Positions 2,562-20,657 of a stretch of 64,000 nucleotides of DNA are shown here, piece by piece. The stretch comes from an uncultured Gammaproteobacteria bacterium. Its GTDB lineage: Bacteria; Pseudomonadota; Gammaproteobacteria; GCA-001735895. Positions within the stretch are counted from its first letter, which is position 1. The number at the start of each line of letters is the position of its first letter. The stretch covers positions 11,410 through 75,409 of the forward strand of contig CAMYON010000001.1 of the NCBI GenBank assembly GCA_947260025.1. The letters run 5' to 3'. Made by a program: the position numbers and the translations under genes. The notes under the pieces were generated by a model, which saw only the letters and a list, made by a program, of their open reading frames with translations, was not told where the DNA came from and did not search any database.

Positions 2562-3800
2562 ATGAATCTTTCAGACTTTGGAGAACGCTTCCGCGGATAC
2601 TCAGGCATAACCCACCTGATGGATGATTTGAGTGAAGGATTGGCGCAACCCGAAGTTGTAATGCTGGGAGGCGGCAATCCCGCTGACATTCCCGAGGTCA
2701 AGGCGATACTCGACACGGTGTTGGTGAAGCTGCAGCAGTCGGGCAGGTTGATCGAAACCCTGGCTAACTATGACGGGCCGCAAGGTAAATCCGGCTTCCT
2801 CGAAACGCTCGCCGATTTTTTTCGGCAGCAATACGGCTGGAACATCAGTAGTCGCAATATAGCCCTGACGCACGGCAGCCAGAGTTCGTTTTTTATTCTG
2901 TTCAATTCGTTTGCGGGCAAGACGGGCTCGTTGCAGAAGCGGGTGCTTATACCACTGGTACCCGAGTACATCGGCTATAGCGACGTCGGCATCGAAGATG
3001 GTCTGATCACCAGTCAGGAAGCTAAAATCCAGCACCTTGAAGACGGATTTTTCAAGTACCTGGTAGATTTCGAACAGTTGCAGGTAGACAAAACAACCGG
3101 GCTGATTTGTGTTTCACGCCCGACTAATCCCAGCGGTAATGTCCTTACCGATGCGGAATGTGCGCAGCTCGACAAAATCGCGCGCCGCCACGACGTTCCG
3201 CTGTTGATCGACAGTGCTTATGGCACCCCGTTCCCCGATATCATTTTCAGCGAGGCCAAGCCGTTCTGGAACGACAACTGTATCGTATGCATGAGCTTGT
3301 CGAAGCTGGGAATGCCGGGAGCGCGCACCGGCATCGTAATCGCCAACGAGGAGGTGATTAAGTATTTTTCGAACATGACCGCGATAACCAGCCTGGCACC
3401 GTCAGGGCTGGGTGCAGAGATCCTCGGTCAGTTAATTGCCGATGATGCCTTGCTCGGCCTTTGTGACGAGATAATACGTCCTTTTTACCGGCAGCGGTCG
3501 GAGTTGGCGGTCAGACTGTTGCGGGAAGCGATTGACGATCCGCGGCTGCATATCCACAAACCCGAAGGTTCGATGTTTTTATGGCTATGGTTCGAAAATC
3601 TTTCCATCAGCAGCAGTGAATTATATCAACGACTAAAGCAGCGGGGCTTGCTGATAGTTCCTGGAAAATATTTCTTCCCGGGTCAGGCGCAGGCGACGCA
3701 GCATGCGGAAAGCTGTGTGCGAATGAACTATGTGCAGAGTGAGGACGAGTTGGCAAAGGGTATCGAAATACTGGCGCGTGAGCTGCGCGCTTGCTGGTAG
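2562..3800 (+). CDS. avtA: Valine--pyruvate aminotransferase (alanine-valine transaminase)
   Basis: MNLSDFGERFRGYSGITHLMDDLSEGL...MLGGGNPADIPEV aligns residue-for-residue with the E. coli AvtA N-terminus (MTFSLFGDKFTRHSGITLLMEDL...MLGGGNPAQIPEM). The start was therefore moved to the internal ATG at 2562 rather than the 2517 track start. Confidence 0.8.
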   Translation: MNLSDFGERFRGYSGITHLMDDLSEGLAQPEVVMLGGGNPADIPEVKAILDTVLVKLQQSGRLIETLANYDGPQGKSGFLETLADFFRQQYGWNISSRNIALTHGSQSSFFILFNSFAGKTGSLQKRVLIPLVPEYIGYSDVGIEDGLITSQEAKIQHLEDGFFKYLVDFEQLQVDKTTGLICVSRPTNPSGNVLTDAECAQLDKIARRHDVPLLIDSAYGTPFPDIIFSEAKPFWNDNCIVCMSLSKLGMPGARTGIVIANEEVIKYFSNMTAITSLAPSGLGAEILGQLIADDALLGLCDEIIRPFYRQRSELAVRLLREAIDDPRLHIHKPEGSMFLWLWFENLSISSSELYQRLKQRGLLIVPGKYFFPGQAQATQHAESCVRMNYVQSEDELAKGIEILARELRACW

Positions 3801-14680: not shown

Positions 14681-15118
14681 ATGAGCAACAAGGTCGTGAT
14701 GTATACCGACGGCGCCTGCCGCGGAAATCCCGGTCCGGGTGGCTGGGGGGTTGTCTTGAGTTACCAGGATAGTCGCAAGACCCTGCGTGGTTACGATCCC
14801 GAGACAACCAATAATCGCATGGAGTTGACCGCGGTAATCGAAGGGTTGCGCGCGTTGAATCGCTCCTGTGACGTCGCAATCTATACCGATTCGAAGTATG
14901 TCATGCAGGGTATCAGCGAGTGGATTGCAAACTGGAAACGCAATGGCTGGAAAACTGCCGCGAAGAAGCCGGTGAAAAATTACGACCTTTGGCAGCTACT
15001 GGATAAAGAGGTTGCCGTGCATAGCATCGACTGGAACTGGGTAAAAGGCCATTCCGGCATCGAGGGTAACGAGCTTGCCGATCAATTGGCGAACGCCGCG
15101 ATCGACGCTGAGGGTTAG
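14681..15118 (+). CDS. rnhA: Ribonuclease HI
   Basis: [26 protein letters not shown]...[14 protein letters not shown] is the classic RNase H fold with catalytic DEDD residues. Confidence 0.9.
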
Positions 15119-15120
15119 AC

Positions 15121-15819
15121 ATGAGACAGATCGTACTGGATACGGAAACCACCGGACTCGAGGTTAGCCTGGGGCACCGCATTATCGAAATCGGCTGCAT
15201 CGAACTGGTAAATCGCCGTGTTACCGGCAACCACTGGCACTATTACGTCAATCCGCAGCGGGAAATCGATAGCGGCGCCTTCGAGGTTCATGGGATTAGC
15301 AGCGATTTCCTGCAGGACAAGCCCCTCTTCGAGGAGCTGGCGCAAGATTTTGTAAGCTATGTCGCTGGTGCCGAGCTGGTAATCCATAACGCGGCTTTCG
15401 ATCTTGGATTCCTGGACAACGAGCTGGCACTGCTGGAGCCACCGGTGGCAGCGCTGCAGGAAAGCTGCACGATTCTCGATACGCTAATGCTGGCTCGGCA
15501 AAAGCATCCGGGGCAGAAGAATAATCTCGATGCCCTGTGCAAGCGTTACGATATCGATAACAGCAAGCGCAGCCTGCACGGTGCGCTGCTCGATGCCCGC
15601 ATTCTGGCCGATGTCTACCTCGCCATGACCGGCGGTCAGACCAGTCTCGGGCTTGATGCAGGGCAGGGCGGTGGCACTCAGCACGAGCAGGTCGAGGTCC
15701 AACGCATCGAATCCGGGCAACCGCTAGCGCTGTGGCAGGTCGACGAAGTTGCGCAGCAGGCAAACCGCGAATACATCGAGTTCCTCGCCACCCAGCACGA
15801 CGATCCCGCCTGGAAATAA
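15121..15819 (+). CDS. dnaQ: DNA polymerase III epsilon subunit (3'-5' proofreading exonuclease)
   Basis: MRQIVLDTETTGLE...HGALLDARILADVYLAMTGGQ gives Exo I-III motifs. It is adjacent to rnhA. Confidence 0.9.
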   Translation: MRQIVLDTETTGLEVSLGHRIIEIGCIELVNRRVTGNHWHYYVNPQREIDSGAFEVHGISSDFLQDKPLFEELAQDFVSYVAGAELVIHNAAFDLGFLDNELALLEPPVAALQESCTILDTLMLARQKHPGQKNNLDALCKRYDIDNSKRSLHGALLDARILADVYLAMTGGQTSLGLDAGQGGGTQHEQVEVQRIESGQPLALWQVDEVAQQANREYIEFLATQHDDPAWK

Positions 15820-15874
15820 ACCCACTGGTTCTATCCTGAATACTGTCTTCCAATTGCGGAGACTGGCCTGGGAG

Positions 15875-16348
15875 CTACGAAGATTTGAGCATTCGGGCCT
15901 GGTCGCGTTTCCAGTCGCGATCCTTGATGCTGGCGCGCTTGTCGTGCGCCTTCTTGCCCTTGGCGATTCCGAGCTTGAGTTTGGCGCGACCGCGGCTCCA
16001 GTAGGCCGACAACGCGACCAGCGTGTAACCTTTGCGTTCGACCATGCCGACCAGGCGGTCTATTTCACCTCGATGTGCAAGCAGTTTCCGGGTTCGGGTC
16101 GGGTTGGGTTTAACATGGGTGGACGCGCTGTTTAGCGGGCTGATATGAGCGCCGATCAGCCAGATCTCCCCGTTTTTGACCATGACATAGCTCTCCTTGA
16201 GCTGCAGGTTTCCACTACGCAAGCCCTTGACTTCCCAGCCCTCGAGCACGATCCCGACCTCGATCTCGTCTTCGATGAAATAGTCGTGGCGGGCAACGCG
16301 GTTGACCGCAATCGTGTTAGAAGGAGCTTTGGATTTTTTCTTGCCCAT
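15875..16348 (-). CDS. smpB: SsrA-binding protein
   Basis: 157 aa. [46 protein letters not shown] is a near-textbook SmpB. Confidence 0.9.
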
Positions 16349-16480
16349 ACTGGGGAGATCTCTGTTGACTGCAACTGGCGCGCCATATTCTCGGGTTAAT
16401 TAGAGGCCATGACAAGCGAATCGCGTTAATCGCTTCTTGAAACCTGACCAGCCTTCGCTATACACTCTCGCCCTTGCAAT

Positions 16481-16595
<115 letters not shown>

Positions 16596-16632
16596 GTTTT
16601 CCGGTTGATTACGCCACCTCCACTGAGTCTGA

Positions 16633-18393
16633 ATGAGTTACCAGGTATTAGCGCGCAAATGGCGGCCGGCCAATTTTCAACAAATGGTTGGCCAGGAGCA
16701 CGTGCTGCAGGCACTGGTCAACGCACTCGACAGTAATCGACTTCATCATGCCTACCTGTTTACCGGCACCCGCGGTGTTGGCAAGACGACGATTGCGCGC
16801 ATCTTCGCCAAATCGCTCAACTGCGAGCAGGGCATCACGTCGGAGCCCTGCGGCAGCTGCTCTTCCTGCAGCGAGATCGATGAAGGCCGTAGCGTCGACC
16901 TGATCGAAATCGATGCGGCTTCGCGCACCGGGGTCGACGATATGCGCGAACTGCTCGACAACGTACAATACGCCCCCACTCGCGGTCGTTTCAAGATTTA
17001 CCTGATCGACGAAGTCCACATGCTGTCCAGGCACAGTTTTAACGCCTTGCTGAAAACCCTGGAAGAGCCGCCGCCGCATATCAAATTCCTGTTGGCGACC
17101 ACCGATCCGCAAAAAGTGCCGGTAACGGTCTTGTCCCGCTGCCTGCAGTTCAACCTCAAGCGCATGTCGCGGGCGCAGATACTGTCACAGCTGCAGTTTC
17201 TCACCGAGCAGGAATCGGTAGATGCGGATGTCGCGGCCCTCGGGCAACTTGCAGCGGCCGCCGATGGCAGCATGCGCGATGCGCTCAGCCTGTTGGACCA
17301 GGCGATTGGCTATGGCGGCGGCGCGGTCAAGCAGGATGCGGTCGAGGCTATGCTCGGTTCTATATCACGCGATTACCTGCAGCGCCTGTTCGACGCGCTG
17401 CAGGGGCAGCAGGCGGCGACGCTGTTACGCGAGGCCCGTGCGGTTATCGAACATAATCCCGACTACCAGCGCGTTTGTGCCGAAATGCTGTCCCTGCTGC
17501 AGCAGGTGGCGCTCTACCAGAGCGATCCAGGCCTGGTTGGCGACGGCGATGTCTCGATCGAAATGCTGCAACGCTACAGTTCGGCCTGGTCGCCGGAAGA
17601 GGTCCAGCTGTATTACCAGATTATGCTGCAGGGCCGGCACGACCTGTTGATCAGTCCCGACGAGGCCGCCGGCTTCGAAATGCTGATGTTGCGCCTGATT
17701 GCTTTTTCGCCTGCAGCAGAAACCGCCGGCAGTGAGCGCGAGGTAAAAAAAAAGCCTGAAAACTCCGCAGGCATAAAGCCGCAACTCAGCGAGGATCTGA
17801 CACCGCCAGAGGCCATCGTTGACCCCGATAATTCCGCGTCCGACGGCGAGCGGGAAGCGGCCGATACGAGCCAGGCCGATGTCTTCGCTGCCGCATGCGA
17901 CGATGCTGGCTCCGAAACTCAGGAAGCCAGCCCGACTGCGGTAAAAACCACTCCACCCGTGGCGCCCGGCACGGCCGAACCTGATGCCGCTACCGGTCCG
18001 CTCCTCGAATGGCCCGAACTGGCGTACGATCTCGGGCTGGATGGTCTGGCGCAGGAAATTGTCGCCAACAGCGTGCTCGAATCCTGGCAGGACGAGCGCA
18101 TGAAACTGGCTTTACTGCCCGAGATCCAGGATCTGGTAAACCCTCAAATCGAATCCGAAATTAGGCGGGCCCTCGAGGAAAAACTTGGGGTATCATTGCA
18201 GCTTGAAATGAGCGCCAGGGATTCGTTGACCGGCGAAACACCGCTGCAGGCAAAGCTGCGGCGGCTGGAGCAGGAGCGGCTCGCGGCGATAGATGCGATT
18301 CGGGAAGACGCGGTGGTGCTGAAACTGCAACAGGCGTTTTCCGCCGAACTCGACGAAAGCAGTGTTGTGAAGATCGAAAATATCGGTAAATGA
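16633..18393 (+). CDS. dnaX: DNA polymerase III subunits tau/gamma
   Basis: It has an AAA+ clamp-loader N-terminus (GTRGVGKTT, DEVHML, SRC) and a Cys4 zinc module (CGSCSSC). It contains an internal programmed -1 frameshift site (separate feature). Confidence 0.9.
   Translation: MSYQVLARKWRPANFQQMVGQEHVLQALVNALDSNRLHHAYLFTGTRGVGKTTIARIFAKSLNCEQGITSEPCGSCSSCSEIDEGRSVDLIEIDAASRTGVDDMRELLDNVQYAPTRGRFKIYLIDEVHMLSRHSFNALLKTLEEPPPHIKFLLATTDPQKVPVTVLSRCLQFNLKRMSRAQILSQLQFLTEQESVDADVAALGQLAAAADGSMRDALSLLDQAIGYGGGAVKQDAVEAMLGSISRDYLQRLFDALQGQQAATLLREARAVIEHNPDYQRVCAEMLSLLQQVALYQSDPGLVGDGDVSIEMLQRYSSAWSPEEVQLYYQIMLQGRHDLLISPDEAAGFEMLMLRLIAFSPAAETAGSEREVKKKPENSAGIKPQLSEDLTPPEAIVDPDNSASDGEREAADTSQADVFAAACDDAGSETQEASPTAVKTTPPVAPGTAEPDAATGPLLEWPELAYDLGLDGLAQEIVANSVLESWQDERMKLALLPEIQDLVNPQIESEIRRALEEKLGVSLQLEMSARDSLTGETPLQAKLRRLEQERLAAIDAIREDAVVLKLQQAFSAELDESSVVKIENIGK
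17748..17759 (+). other. dnaX: dnaX programmed -1 ribosomal frameshift site (A AAA AAG slippery heptamer, UGA two codons later in -1 frame) producing gamma
   Basis: Zero frame reads GAG GTA AAA AAA AAG CCT GAA (E V K K K P E). The heptamer A AAA AAG is identical to the E. coli dnaX slip site. After a -1 slip the reading is AAA AAA GCC TGA, which adds one Ala and then stops. An internal SD-like GAGG lies 5-8 nt upstream, and a short hairpin GCCTG-N9-CAGGC starts at the slip site. Confidence 0.6.
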
Positions 18394-18406
18394 AGAGGTT
18401 AAGCTA

Positions 18407-18730
18407 ATGAAAGGTGCGCTCGGCGATATGATGAAAAAGGCGCAGGAAATGCAGGAAAACCTGCAAAAAGCGCAAAGCGAACTAGCCAGTAAGGAGGTAA
18501 CCGGGGAAGCCGGTGGAGGCATGGTTACCGTAGTAATGCGCGGCACCCATGAAGTCAATCGGGTAACCATCGATCCGTCGCTGGTGGATGAAGATGTCGA
18601 AATGCTCGAAGACCTGGTGGCTGCTGCCGTCAACGATGCCGTGCACAAGGTCGCTAAATCCAACGAAGCGGCTATGCAGGAAATGACGGCCGGGCTTAAT
18701 TTACCGCCCGGGTTCAAGCTGCCGTTTTAA
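18407..18730 (+). CDS. ybaB: Nucleoid-associated protein YbaB/EbfC
   Basis: 107 aa. MKGALGDMMKKAQEMQENLQKAQSELA matches YbaB. The dnaX-ybaB-recR order is conserved. Confidence 0.9.
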   Translation: MKGALGDMMKKAQEMQENLQKAQSELASKEVTGEAGGGMVTVVMRGTHEVNRVTIDPSLVDEDVEMLEDLVAAAVNDAVHKVAKSNEAAMQEMTAGLNLPPGFKLPF

Positions 18731-18733
18731 TCG

Positions 18734-19330
18734 ATGTCATCATCTAGCCTGGAGCAGATGATCGCGGCGTTGAGATGCCTGCCGGGAGTCGGGCAGAAAT
18801 CGGCGCAGCGGATGGCCCTGCATTTGCTGGAGCGCGATCAACAGGGCGCCCGACGCATCGCCGAGACCATCACCCAGGCGCTGGATACGGTTCGACACTG
18901 CAGCAAATGTCGCAATTTCTCGGATTCGGACTTATGCGATATTTGCAGCGACCAGGGGCGCGAGCAAAATATCATTTGTGTCGTCGAAACTCCGGCCGAC
19001 GTGCTGGCGGTCGAATCTTCGGCCGCATACCGTGGCCGTTACTTCGTTTTGCTGGGACGGCTGTCGCCGCTGGACGGCTTCGGGCCGGCGCAGTTAGGCC
19101 TGGAAGATCTCGAGCAACAGCTGAGCGAGAATGGAATCAAGGAAGTCATTCTCGCCACCAGCGCTACTGTCGAAGGTGATATTACCGCGCAGTATATCGC
19201 CGACTTCGCGACCCGGCAGGGCATTACCAGTAGCCGCCTGGCGCGCGGTATCCCGCTGGGGGGAGAGCTTGAATTCGTCGATGGCGGAACCCTGTCTCGC
19301 GCCCTGACCGGACGCCAGCAAATCGACTAG
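18734..19330 (+). CDS. recR: Recombination protein RecR
   Basis: It has LPGVGQKSAQRMALHLL (HhH), a C4 zinc finger CSKCRNFSDSDLCDIC, and a Toprim domain. Confidence 0.9.
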   Translation: MSSSSLEQMIAALRCLPGVGQKSAQRMALHLLERDQQGARRIAETITQALDTVRHCSKCRNFSDSDLCDICSDQGREQNIICVVETPADVLAVESSAAYRGRYFVLLGRLSPLDGFGPAQLGLEDLEQQLSENGIKEVILATSATVEGDITAQYIADFATRQGITSSRLARGIPLGGELEFVDGGTLSRALTGRQQID

Positions 19331-19356
19331 TTCCAGAAAACCACAGGGGAAAACTC

Positions 19357-19704
19357 ATGTCCGAAACTTTATTTACCCGGATAATCAAACGCGAACTGCC
19401 GGCCGATATCGTCTATGAAACCGATGACATAATAGCGATCCGCGACATCAATCCACAGGCGCCGACGCATGTGCTGGTGATCCCCAGGGTTGAAATCGCG
19501 ACGGTCAACGATATCCAGCCCGGGCAGGCCGAGCTGATTGGCAAGATGGTGCTGGCCGCGCAAAAGATTGCGAGCGACGAAGGCATTGCGGAGGATGGCT
19601 ATCGACTGGTAATCAATTGCAATCGCCACGGTTGCCAGGAAGTGTTCCACCTGCACCTGCACCTGGTTGGCGGCAGGCAGTTGCGAGGTATTTCGGCTTC
19701 CTAA
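19357..19704 (+). CDS. HIT-family nucleotide hydrolase (HinT-like)
   Basis: 115 aa with the histidine triad HLHLHLVGG near the C-terminus. Confidence 0.8.
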   Translation: MSETLFTRIIKRELPADIVYETDDIIAIRDINPQAPTHVLVIPRVEIATVNDIQPGQAELIGKMVLAAQKIASDEGIAEDGYRLVINCNRHGCQEVFHLHLHLVGGRQLRGISAS

Positions 19705-20657
19705 CCAGCCGTTAGCTGCTGCAACATCTTAAGGTAATTTTGATAGCGGGATTCTGCGATGATACCGGAGTCGACCGCCTCGATGACCGCGCATTTCGGT
19801 TCATTACGATGCAGGCAGTTGTGAAAGCGGCAACCCTCCCCGATTTCCCTGATTTCCCTGAATCCCAGGGCCAGCGGCCTCTTGTCATCGATGAACGGGC
19901 TGAATCCCCTGACCCCGGGGGTGTCGATCAAATCACCGCCGCCGGGTAAATGATACAGGCGACTGGCGCGGGTGGTATGCCGTCCTTCCTCGTTGGCTTC
20001 GGAAATGCTCGCGACCTTGATTTCTTCCTGTGGCAGGAGCCAGCTGGTTAGCGATGATTTCCCCACCCCGGAGACCCCGCTCAGCACCGATACCTGGCCC
20101 GGCAATAGTGCGTTAAATTCCTCCATACCGGCTCCCGAAACAACGCTGGTATCGACCTGCCGGTATCCCAGCGGCTGATAAATTCGGCGCAGTCCGTACG
20201 GGTCCTCCCTGTCTGTGGCGAGATCGATCTTGTTGAGCAGAATGCAGGCCTCGATCTGCTGTTGCTCAGCCGACAGCAGGTACTGGTCGAGCAGGAAAAG
20301 GTTGGGTTCGGGAGAAACCGCAAGGCATACGAACAACTGGCTGATATTGGCCGCAACGGATCTGACCTGACCGAAACCGTCGACGCGCTGTAACAGGTTA
20401 TCCCGCTCCAGTATCCCGACGACTCGATGTTGCTGCTGCGCCGTGGTTTCGATCGCTACACGATCGCCGCAAACGATGGTACCGAGATTGGACTTGATCT
20501 TGCACTCGATAGTTGTTGCCGAATCGCGTTCGACCAGGAGTTGGCCGCCCTGGTGAGAAACTACCAGCCCGCGGTCGTAATCATCGTGTTCCGAAATGGC
20601 GTCCTGGGCCGCCTGAATCCGATTCTGCTGCTGCTGGCTAAGCCTGCGCTTTGCCAT
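19701..20657 (-). CDS. rsgA: Small-subunit-dependent ribosome biogenesis GTPase RsgA (YjeQ)
   Basis: It has an OB-fold N-terminus, a circularly permuted GTPase (VLSGVSGVGKSSL) and a C-terminal zinc knuckle CRFHNCLHRNEPKCAV. Confidence 0.85.
   Translation of the reverse strand: MAKRRLSQQQQNRIQAAQDAISEHDDYDRGLVVSHQGGQLLVERDSATTIECKIKSNLGTIVCGDRVAIETTAQQQHRVVGILERDNLLQRVDGFGQVRSVAANISQLFVCLAVSPEPNLFLLDQYLLSAEQQQIEACILLNKIDLATDREDPYGLRRIYQPLGYRQVDTSVVSGAGMEEFNALLPGQVSVLSGVSGVGKSSLTSWLLPQEEIKVASISEANEEGRHTTRASRLYHLPGGGDLIDTPGVRGFSPFIDDKRPLALGFREIREIGEGCRFHNCLHRNEPKCAVIEAVDSGIIAESRYQNYLKMLQQLTAG

Follow-up and report, generated by a model that had tools for sequence, protein, structure and literature searches.

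A conserved run of nine adenines in a gammaproteobacterial dnaX as a candidate site of programmed transcriptional slippage

Architecture of the proposed dnaX recoding site

The window, i.e. the whole 64-kb stretch of DNA that was analysed, carries a dnaX gene for whose product Pfam reports DNA_pol3_delta2 (residues 20-178), the ATPase lid (182-230), gamma domain III (232-358) and tau domain V (DNA_pol3_tau_5; 459-578). A run of nine A's occupies codons 371-374 of 586, straight after domain III and before domain V, which begins at residue 459. The features of the gene and of this site are as follows:

16633..18393, + strand: dnaX coding sequence, the zero frame encoding tau (586 aa, 64.1 kDa; from the ORF list and Pfam)
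17745..17753, + strand: run of nine A's (T9 in the template strand), the conserved slippage-prone element and proposed RNA polymerase realignment site
17748..17754, + strand: in-phase A_AAA_AAG heptamer, i.e. codons 373-374 plus the preceding A, a possible secondary -1 ribosomal frameshifting site
17753..17776, + strand: +1 frame tail AGC CTG AAA ACT CCG CAG GCA TAA, predicted to end a second gamma form (380 aa, 42.0 kDa)
17754..17759, + strand: -1 frame tail GCC TGA, the predicted end of a 375-aa gamma (...VKKKA) reached if the transcript has one A more or if ribosomes shift by -1
17755..18390, + strand: tau-only C-terminal region (linker and domain V, the binding domain for the alpha subunit of the polymerase; from Pfam), missing from both predicted gamma forms

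Across the site the zero frame reads GAG GTA AAA AAA AAG CCT GAA, in which AAG is codon 374 and A_AAA_AAG is correctly phased as X_XXY_YYZ. A sequence-only reading of the window had located this heptamer 374 codons into dnaX and had proposed that a -1 slip adds one Ala before a UGA; sequence and frame arithmetic agree with the position, and GCC (17754-56) and TGA (17757-59) can be read directly. The product sizes given there hold as well, with computed masses of 64.1 kDa for tau and 41.5 kDa for the predicted 375-aa gamma with its C-terminus ...KKKA. Two properties of the site had been overlooked, the heptamer being the 3' portion of a nine-A run and the +1 frame also running into a stop, after seven codons. 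This +1 tail, whose stop lies at 17774-76, would be reached if the transcript had lost one A or gained two. The site very probably serves for recoding of dnaX where domains III and IV meet, and it almost certainly gives, beside tau, a gamma predicted at about 41 kDa.

Within the window, the run and the heptamer are not exceptional by number. The A9 in dnaX is the only one in 64 kb, which is not significant alone (37 of 100 shuffles), and the bare A_AAA_AAG heptamer is not rare (17 observed vs 9.25 expected). Both counts would fit an explanation without programmed recoding, according to which the A9 run merely encodes Lys-Lys-Lys in a flexible linker, tau is the only product and the stops are coincidental. 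Against this explanation, the run sits exactly at the boundary between the gamma and tau domains, and A9 runs in coding regions are generally selected against because they slip (PMC1088944). Of the dnaX codon positions, 4.3% have a -1 stop as near as that of GCC TGA and 2.2% combine a -1 stop no more than one codon away with a +1 stop no more than seven away, a +1 stop within seven codons alone being only mildly unusual (24.6%). E. coli-type shifting goes with one tRNA-Lys(UUU) that reads AAG and with the lack of tRNA-Lys(CUU), a tRNA that would make slippage on AAG much weaker; the 64-kb window holds no tRNA genes.

Conservation among relatives and across dnaX loci

The sequence-only reading had proposed comparing the site across related genomes, and this comparison bears the site out: an A9 or A10 run is present at the same codon in all of the ten closest relatives, whose identity is 64-78% in the best matched segment. 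The run itself is invariant within an alignment having a mean column identity of about 53% around it. All six clade members with tau in frame keep the A_AAA_AAG phase and the immediate -1 UGA (GYC TGA); in L001 the +1 stop is 29 codons away. In the five in-frame species with A9 the codon preceding KKK is GTA, GTA, CTA, CTA and GTA, the encoded amino acid thus varying and its third-position A, which is the ninth A and lies outside the heptamer, being constant. In the genome of the window, GTA accounts for 15% of Val codons, CTA for 3.8% of Leu codons and AAA for 38% of Lys codons; 13% of third codon positions are A. Judged by these codons, the run length is kept beyond what coding or the heptamer would need, and constraint acts on the synonymous position of the ninth A.

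Among 159 surveyed dnaX loci, runs of A6 (n=20), A7 (n=1), A8 (n=0), A9 (n=16) and A10 (n=8) were counted, and this bimodal distribution of 6-7 vs 9-10 A's suggests two classes of site. The classes differ in the distance to the +1 stop, with a median of 3 codons for loci with at least nine A's vs 13 for short heptamers (Mann-Whitney p = 2.9e-6, p-values being optimistic because the loci are phylogenetically related). Near stops in both alternative frames, as seen in the class with nine or more A's, are predicted by transcriptional slippage and not by -1 frameshifting. Of the 159 loci, 115 are without such a site, so the earlier remark on non-enteric bacteria, many of which were said to make only tau, is broadly right as regards the signal.

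One neighbouring lineage has the opposite arrangement. Five species with 73-84% mutual identity (L004, L005, L006, L083 and L084) form a monophyletic sister group, in which it is gamma that the A9 run of the site NAA AAA AAA AGY CYG TAA leaves in the genomic frame. In four of the five species the -1 frame encodes an intact tau C-terminus (tblastn E 1e-21 to 1e-28), the L084 locus stopping short of the tau C-terminus and being left out of this support. The run of the sister group has neither the terminal in-phase G nor a conserved hairpin. The more distant L140 likewise encodes a gamma ending just past the poly-A run, with the -1 frame carrying tau. In E. coli tau is essential, and with tau out of the genomic frame the essential tau of the sister group must come from efficient, unstimulated recoding. 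A swap of the in-frame product by a single nucleotide is expected if the efficiency is near 50% (PMC5009743), and the paired sister clades support recoding of about this efficiency. As to direction, the configurations with gamma by -1 and with tau by -1 fit both +1A slippage and -1 frameshifting.

These comparisons bear on two of the alternatives. That recoding is absent altogether is in line with the many related dnaX loci having no site. Yet this explanation has to contend with an exact run kept through saturated synonymous divergence and against codon bias, with a -1 stop within one codon in six of six in-frame clade members and with a sister lineage that could not produce tau if it did not recode; we consider it very unlikely. 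The second alternative, by which A9 and A10 interchange at the DNA level through replication slippage (phase variation) or were miscalled in the assemblies and the two configurations would reflect population or technical variation instead of expression, draws on homopolymers being hot spots for indels and on the two subclades being one nucleotide of phase apart, so that at least one DNA-level indel must once have been fixed. We judge it still less probable as an account of the site: the tau-out-of-frame state is common to five divergent species of one clade, this clade has its own co-evolved TAA two codons past the run, the assemblies are independent (by contig names at least two MEGAHIT-style k141, one MetaBAT bin and two JGI metagenome contigs), and, tau being essential in E. 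coli, an OFF state would be lethal. A search of public assemblies for the exact DnaX, sought for an independent A9 count or transcript variants, gave no record.

Possible ribosomal frameshifting and its candidate stimulators

The sequence-only reading had held that the site reproduces the E. coli mechanism, and had named two stimulators:

17740..17743, + strand: GAGG, SD-like, 4 nt from the heptamer, not conserved (duplex scan with E. coli control)
17754..17772, + strand: hairpin GCCUG-N9-CAGGC, 5 bp, -7.5 kcal/mol in isolation, spacer 0, not conserved

The likeness to E. coli concerns the same gene, a gamma without the tau C-terminal domains, the identical in-phase A_AAA_AAG and one sense codon preceding the -1 UGA (GAG UGA there and GCC UGA in the window). 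At the E. coli site there are only six A's, AGGGAG precedes the heptamer by 10 nt and a stem-loop of about -19 kcal/mol follows it after 6 nt; the site also differs from the present one in being located at codon 430, past a longer linker.

GAGG is present where it had been noted, but its role does not stand up. An SD stimulates -1 shifting from a distance of 9-14 nt, 3 nt being the spacing for +1 shifting (PMC5009743), and being mis-spaced at 4 nt and not conserved GAGG is probably not a stimulator of a -1 shift. The best anti-SD duplex at 7-14 nt reaches -4.7 kcal/mol in the window vs -7.4 kcal/mol at about 10 nt in E. coli. Duplexes at this distance range from +0.4 to -4.6 kcal/mol in the relatives, and the duplex scan found an SD 7-14 nt upstream in none of them, the E. 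coli control being positive at about 10 nt.

The hairpin, for its part, can pair as proposed, with the arms GCCTG (17754-58) and CAGGC (17768-72) and its start at the last base of the heptamer. The usual spacer between a slippery heptamer and a stem-loop is 5-9 nt (PMC5009743); having a spacer of zero, only 5 bp and no conservation, the hairpin is probably not a stimulator either. Across the alignment of the relatives its positions can pair in 58.5% of cells vs 55.9% in shuffles, RNAalifold on the same alignment returns zero consensus pairs, and the downstream structures of the relatives are differing or absent. Downstream segments of 61 nt and 126 nt fold no more than expected from shuffling (z = -0.38 and -0.59). 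The Rfam family RF00382 has no match at E<=1 in window positions 15000-20000 or in the ten relatives, the positive control, E. coli L161:3065-3129, scoring 96.8 bits. With both stimulators failing and RF00382 finding no match, the claim that the E. coli mechanism is reproduced is not upheld, the conserved part being the A9/A10 run. An upstream nascent-RNA hairpin was considered as a conserved stimulator of slippage and rejected, as the folds were inconsistent (z -3.4 to +1.3) and their geometry was not shared. The sole Rfam match obtained in permissive scans of the window and the relatives was SRP RNA.

We regard E. coli-type -1 ribosomal frameshifting as the main route to gamma as unlikely, whether stimulated by GAGG and the hairpin or by something unrecognised such as the A run, and several observations are on its side. 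The in-phase heptamer and the immediate -1 UGA are retained in every tau-in-frame clade member, the dinucleotide 3' of the heptamer is CC, which is the most shift-prone context for -1 frameshifting (PMC5009743), and 21 other gammaproteobacterial loci have AAAAAAG-YCTGA with six A's, which is naturally read as frameshifting. Thermus dnaX also bears a comparable translational frameshift signature, the route used during overexpression in E. coli being described as unclear (PMC4320859). Without stimulators, however, A_AAA_AAG shifts in E. coli at about 0.3% and at most at about 3.7% (PMC4066793). Apart from the mis-spaced GAGG, the short hairpin and the missing RF00382 match, this explanation does not account for the constrained ninth A, for the near +1 stops of the class with nine or more A's or for the essential tau that the sister lineage makes from a stimulator-less A_AAA_AAA.

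Proposed transcriptional slippage and its relation to known dnaX systems

Two textbook routes lead to gamma, frameshifting by the ribosome in E. coli and slippage during transcription in Thermus. As a Thermus-type run includes the heptamer of E. coli, they are easily confused from sequence alone.

For Thermus thermophilus dnaX, transcriptional slippage is reported to have been shown experimentally (Larsen et al. 2000 PNAS 97:1683, as cited in PMC1088944, PMC3711429 and PMC4320859), with an efficiency at its A9 run given as about 50% (PMC1088944). The present site shares with it the A9 in the dnaX sense strand with tau in the genomic frame, the identical 15-nt core A9GCCTGA (Thermus sequence as printed in PMC3711429 Fig. 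S3), the UGA as second codon of the -1 frame (as described in PMC4320859) and a GAGG close upstream, with GAGG-T-A9-GCCTGA in the window and GAGG-GAG-A9-GCCTGA in the Thermus sequence of the same figure (PMC3711429 Fig. S3). In both, a stop in the other frame makes two gamma forms possible, and the embedded A_AAA_AAG was first taken as a signature of ribosomal frameshifting. The distance to the second stop is 7 codons in the window vs 16 in Thermus by the account in PMC4320859. Thermus belongs to Deinococcus-Thermus and the window to Gammaproteobacteria, the present site being known from its sequence, and with the two in different phyla the resemblance is probably convergent. The slippage propensity of RNA polymerase differs among bacteria (PMC1088944).

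We favour the interpretation that the dnaX run works as in Thermus, as a site of programmed transcriptional slippage to which ribosomes may add a minor share, and consider this reading fairly probable; its fit to the Thermus site is much better than that to the E. coli frameshift signal. According to this model, RNA polymerase transcribing the T9 template would form an all-rA:dT hybrid that realigns, resulting in mRNAs with A8, A9, A10, A11 and so on. Messages with A9 (and A9 +/- 3n) would encode tau of 586 aa, A10 messages would bring GCC UGA into frame and give gamma of 375 aa, and A8 and A11 messages would yield the 380-aa gamma with the C-terminus SLKTPQA. A small extra amount of the 375-aa product would come from -1 slippage of ribosomes on A_AAA_AAG_CC. 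Translation may contribute to gamma in this manner, given that the terminal G and the A_AAA_AAG phase are conserved in the subclade of the window and that CC is the most shift-prone context. Ribosomes sliding on long A runs represent another translational route. Both the occurrence of slippage in this organism and its level, transcription or translation, are what we infer from the site and its relatives.

A more far-reaching proposal, which we put forward tentatively and hold to be possible, is that one family-level lineage among uncultured gammaproteobacteria uses a bare A9, without RNA stimulators, as a switch of about 50:50 that is read by both RNA polymerase slippage and a ribosomal -1 shift on the A_AAA_AAG within it, that this switch flipped once between a tau-templated and a gamma-templated state, and that its 15-nt core converged on that of Thermus.

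The sister lineage has just the architecture of the reversed dnaX genes of Antonov et al. 2013 (PMC3711429), in which tau needs recoding at a poly-A run, and this architecture is shared by L140; the window differs from them in having a single 586-aa ORF with tau in frame, so that it does not belong to this group. The poly-A cases that Antonov et al. name (PMC3711429) come from Chlorobi, Bacteroidetes and Verrucomicrobia and have mostly A10, those described here being gammaproteobacterial and having mostly A9.

For annotation, this suggests that dnaX genes with A9 or A10 runs should not be called ribosomal slippage by default, and that "pseudogene" is the wrong label for the split dnaX genes of the sister lineage. 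The sister lineage extends the reversed dnaX architecture to Gammaproteobacteria. The known picture is unchanged by the present site, which would be a further example of an established recoding trick. If the two-level A9 switch of about 50:50 were true, the clade would be a natural paired experiment on the share of each level, and would also bear on why the tau:gamma ratio is maintained.

A probable recoding site within dnaX

The window dnaX, from an uncultured gammaproteobacterium, encodes a clamp-loader protein of 586 aa. Pfam places gamma domain III at residues 232-358 and tau domain V at 459-578, alongside the ATPase module and the lid. The neighbouring exonuclease, SmpB, HIT-family and RsgA genes are ordinary housekeeping genes, with no signs of a mobile element or island near dnaX.

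Features of the dnaX region
15121-15819, + strand: RNase_T-family exonuclease (DnaQ-like)
15875-16348, - strand: SmpB
16490-16585, + strand: small SRP (4.5S) RNA gene, directly upstream of dnaX (RF00169, 62.7 bits)
16633-18393, + strand: dnaX (ORF listing)
18407-18730: ybaB, downstream of dnaX
18734-19330: recR, downstream of ybaB
19357-19704, + strand: HIT-family protein
19701-20657, - strand: RsgA GTPase

The order SRP RNA, dnaX, ybaB, recR is maintained in relatives, the SRP RNA being matched in L002-L006, L081, L083 and L084; E. coli instead has apt ahead of dnaX.

The zero frame from 17740 reads GAG GTA AAA AAA AAG CCT GAA. A sequence-only reading had proposed an E. coli-type -1 frameshift signal here, and direct inspection of the sequence confirmed the A_AAA_AAG heptamer at 17748-17754 in the correct phase, with AAG as codon 374, and GCC TGA following in the -1 frame; the expected product sizes also agree with our predictions (full-length tau 64.1 kDa; short gamma 41.5 kDa, 375 aa). 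That reading missed that the heptamer closes a nine-A run at 17745-17753, the sole A9 run within the window, and that the +1 frame ends fast as well (AGC CTG AAA ACT CCG CAG GCA TAA), which would yield a further predicted product of gamma size, 380 aa long. With 17 occurrences in the window versus 9.25 expected, the heptamer alone is common and thus carries no evidential weight on its own.

Candidate stimulators of E. coli type

The positive control was dnaX of E. coli (L161, annotated frameshifting element at 3065-3129), which Rfam model RF00382 recovers with 96.8 bits; neither the window nor ten relatives gave a match at E<=1. The E. coli 3' stem-loop (about -19 kcal/mol) begins 6 nt past AAG, within the usual spacer of 5-9 nt (PMC5009743), whereas the window hairpin GCCUG-N9-CAGGC (17754-17772) has 5 bp and -7.5 kcal/mol and starts at the G of AAG, leaving zero spacer. 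With the heptamer in the P and A sites, established ribosome geometry would already place its 5' arm inside the ribosome. When eleven clade members are compared, 58.5% of cells allow the proposed pairs versus 55.9% in shuffles, and RNAalifold returned zero consensus pairs for the clade alignment. The GAGG at 17740-17743 pairs with the anti-SD as well as the E. coli element does (-7.4 kcal/mol at about 10 nt), but lies only 4 nt from the heptamer, while SD stimulators of -1 shifts work over 9-14 nt, a spacing of 3 nt being that of +1 shifts (PMC5009743); among relatives no SD comparable to that of E. coli was found at 7-14 nt. Both proposed elements are present, the hairpin as a possible pairing, but their assignment as stimulators is not upheld, nor is the claim that the E. 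coli mechanism is reproduced.

In single-sequence folds, the U-rich stretch that codes for a conserved Ala-Phe-Ser-Pro motif (GCUUUUUC) often pairs with purine-rich bases immediately before and at the start of the A-run (window 17700-17750 and equivalent positions in the relatives L082, L005 and L006). We did not accept this as a conserved structure, the z-scores being inconsistent (-3.4 to +1.3).

Conservation of the run and a sister lineage with tau out of frame

Scans of genome and metagenome collections provided 160 related dnaX loci. Of the ten closest relatives, which are 64-78% identical in their best matched segment, nine carry A9 at the same codon and L082 carries A10 there, and A9-G-Y-C-Y-G-W-A forms an invariant island in a clade alignment whose flanks show 53% mean column identity. 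In the five species with A9 in frame, the codon preceding Lys-Lys-Lys is GTA, GTA, CTA, CTA and GTA; the residue differs while the third-position A is constant, against the codon usage of 32 window ORFs (GTA 15% of Val codons, CTA 3.8% of Leu codons, AAA 38% of Lys codons, A at 13% of third positions). The constraint on the run extends past the heptamer.

Five species of 73-84% mutual identity form a monophyletic group, sister to the window's subclade (neighbour-joining, N-terminal 360 residues). L004, L005, L006 and L083 have their N-terminal 360-374 residues in one frame and an intact tau C-terminus in the -1 frame (tblastn E 1e-21 to 1e-28), the junction being exactly the A9 run (genomic frame NAA AAA AAA AGY CYG TAA). 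L084 has the identical run and early stop, its locus ending ahead of the tau C-terminus. In all five, the genomic frame encodes a gamma of 374-379 aa.

A9 runs of the sister lineage
L004: 2612-2620
L005: 2624-2632
L006: 1619-1627
L083: 1616-1624
L084: 2115-2123

We rejected assembly error as the cause: the split has persisted across considerable divergence and comes with its own co-evolved stop. Tau is essential, as established for E. coli, so this lineage must recode efficiently at a bare run, which offers only A_AAA_AAA in phase and no conserved structure. Unstimulated A_AAA_AAG yields about 0.3% in E. coli and, in the most favourable 3' context, no more than about 3.7% (Sharma et al., PMC4066793), far under what this lineage requires for tau.

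The five split genes resemble, within Gammaproteobacteria, the 'reversed' dnaX, in which tau needs recoding. Antonov et al. (2013, PMC3711429) reported it in other phyla, for 17 genes of 12 genera, the named poly-A cases belonging to Chlorobi, Bacteroidetes and Verrucomicrobia. A more distant gammaproteobacterial dnaX (L140, 63% identity) looks like an independent second case of tau out of frame, with an A10 run (2248-2257) followed by C, a zero-frame stop 7 codons past the run and a -1 frame in which the tau C-terminus stays open over 161 codons.

Run lengths across dnaX loci and the mode of recoding

Classes in the survey (159 loci classified)
Without site: 115 loci
Short in-phase A_AAA_AAG, -1 stop within 3 codons: 21 loci (A6 in 20, A7 in 1)
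Run of at least nine A, tau in frame: 18 loci, the window among them
Run of at least nine A, tau out of frame: 6 loci

The distribution of run lengths is bimodal, with values of 6-7 and 9-10 and zero loci at 8. The +1-frame stop lies at a median of 3 codons in the long-run class, while the median for the heptamer class is 13 (Mann-Whitney p = 2.9e-6, optimistic because the loci are phylogenetically related). Near stops in both alternative frames are a prediction of transcript-length heterogeneity, while a -1 ribosomal shift needs none, and some long runs continue with C, so that the efficient heptamer is entirely missing.

Several gammaproteobacterial lineages that are unrelated to one another, including Brumicola, Pseudohongiella and Thiohalomonadaceae MAGs, have A9/A10 runs at the boundary of dnaX domains III and IV. 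These are followed by C without A_AAA_AAG in L055, L074, L075, L118 and L125 and by G in L021, L066, L076, L102, L114 and L036; in all of these both alternative frames stop within 1-7 codons. The motif AAAAAAG-[CT]CTGA, encoding Lys-Lys-Pro/Ser-Glu/Asp with TGA as second -1-frame codon, recurs in many gammaproteobacterial dnaX at codon positions 378-662 (L041, L050, L054, L062, L077, L113, L124, L135, L139, L143, L154, L160 and others) and in Thermus, a sequence recurrence suggesting repeated convergence on one short solution.

Thermus thermophilus dnaX carries nine A's, from which, according to the account of Larsen et al. (2000) in Baranov et al. (PMC1088944), RNA polymerase makes mRNAs of variable run length, those non-3n stopping nearby and gamma making up about 50% of product. 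A second account confirms the phase: slippage by -1 puts a UGA in frame two codons on, and the second frame gives a longer gamma, a doublet being seen (PMC4320859). The Thermus gene was likewise noted there to bear a translational frameshift signature, as the sequence-only reading concluded for the window. The site printed as GAGG-GAG-AAAAAAAAA-GCCTGA (Antonov et al., PMC3711429, Fig. S3) compares with GAGG-T-AAAAAAAAA-GCCTGA in the window. The reading of the site as gamma-producing is retained, but in place of the E. coli-type mechanism the main route is probably transcriptional slippage of the Thermus type, with the A9 run as its site. Mainly ribosomal frameshifting is unlikely, though the embedded A_AAA_AAG_CC possibly adds a minor ribosomal contribution. 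That no recoding occurs here is highly improbable, and variation at the DNA level more so still.

Annotation pipelines would probably call the sister-lineage dnaX genes pseudogenes or two separate genes. With its tau out of frame, the gammaproteobacterial sister clade modestly extends the finding of Antonov et al.
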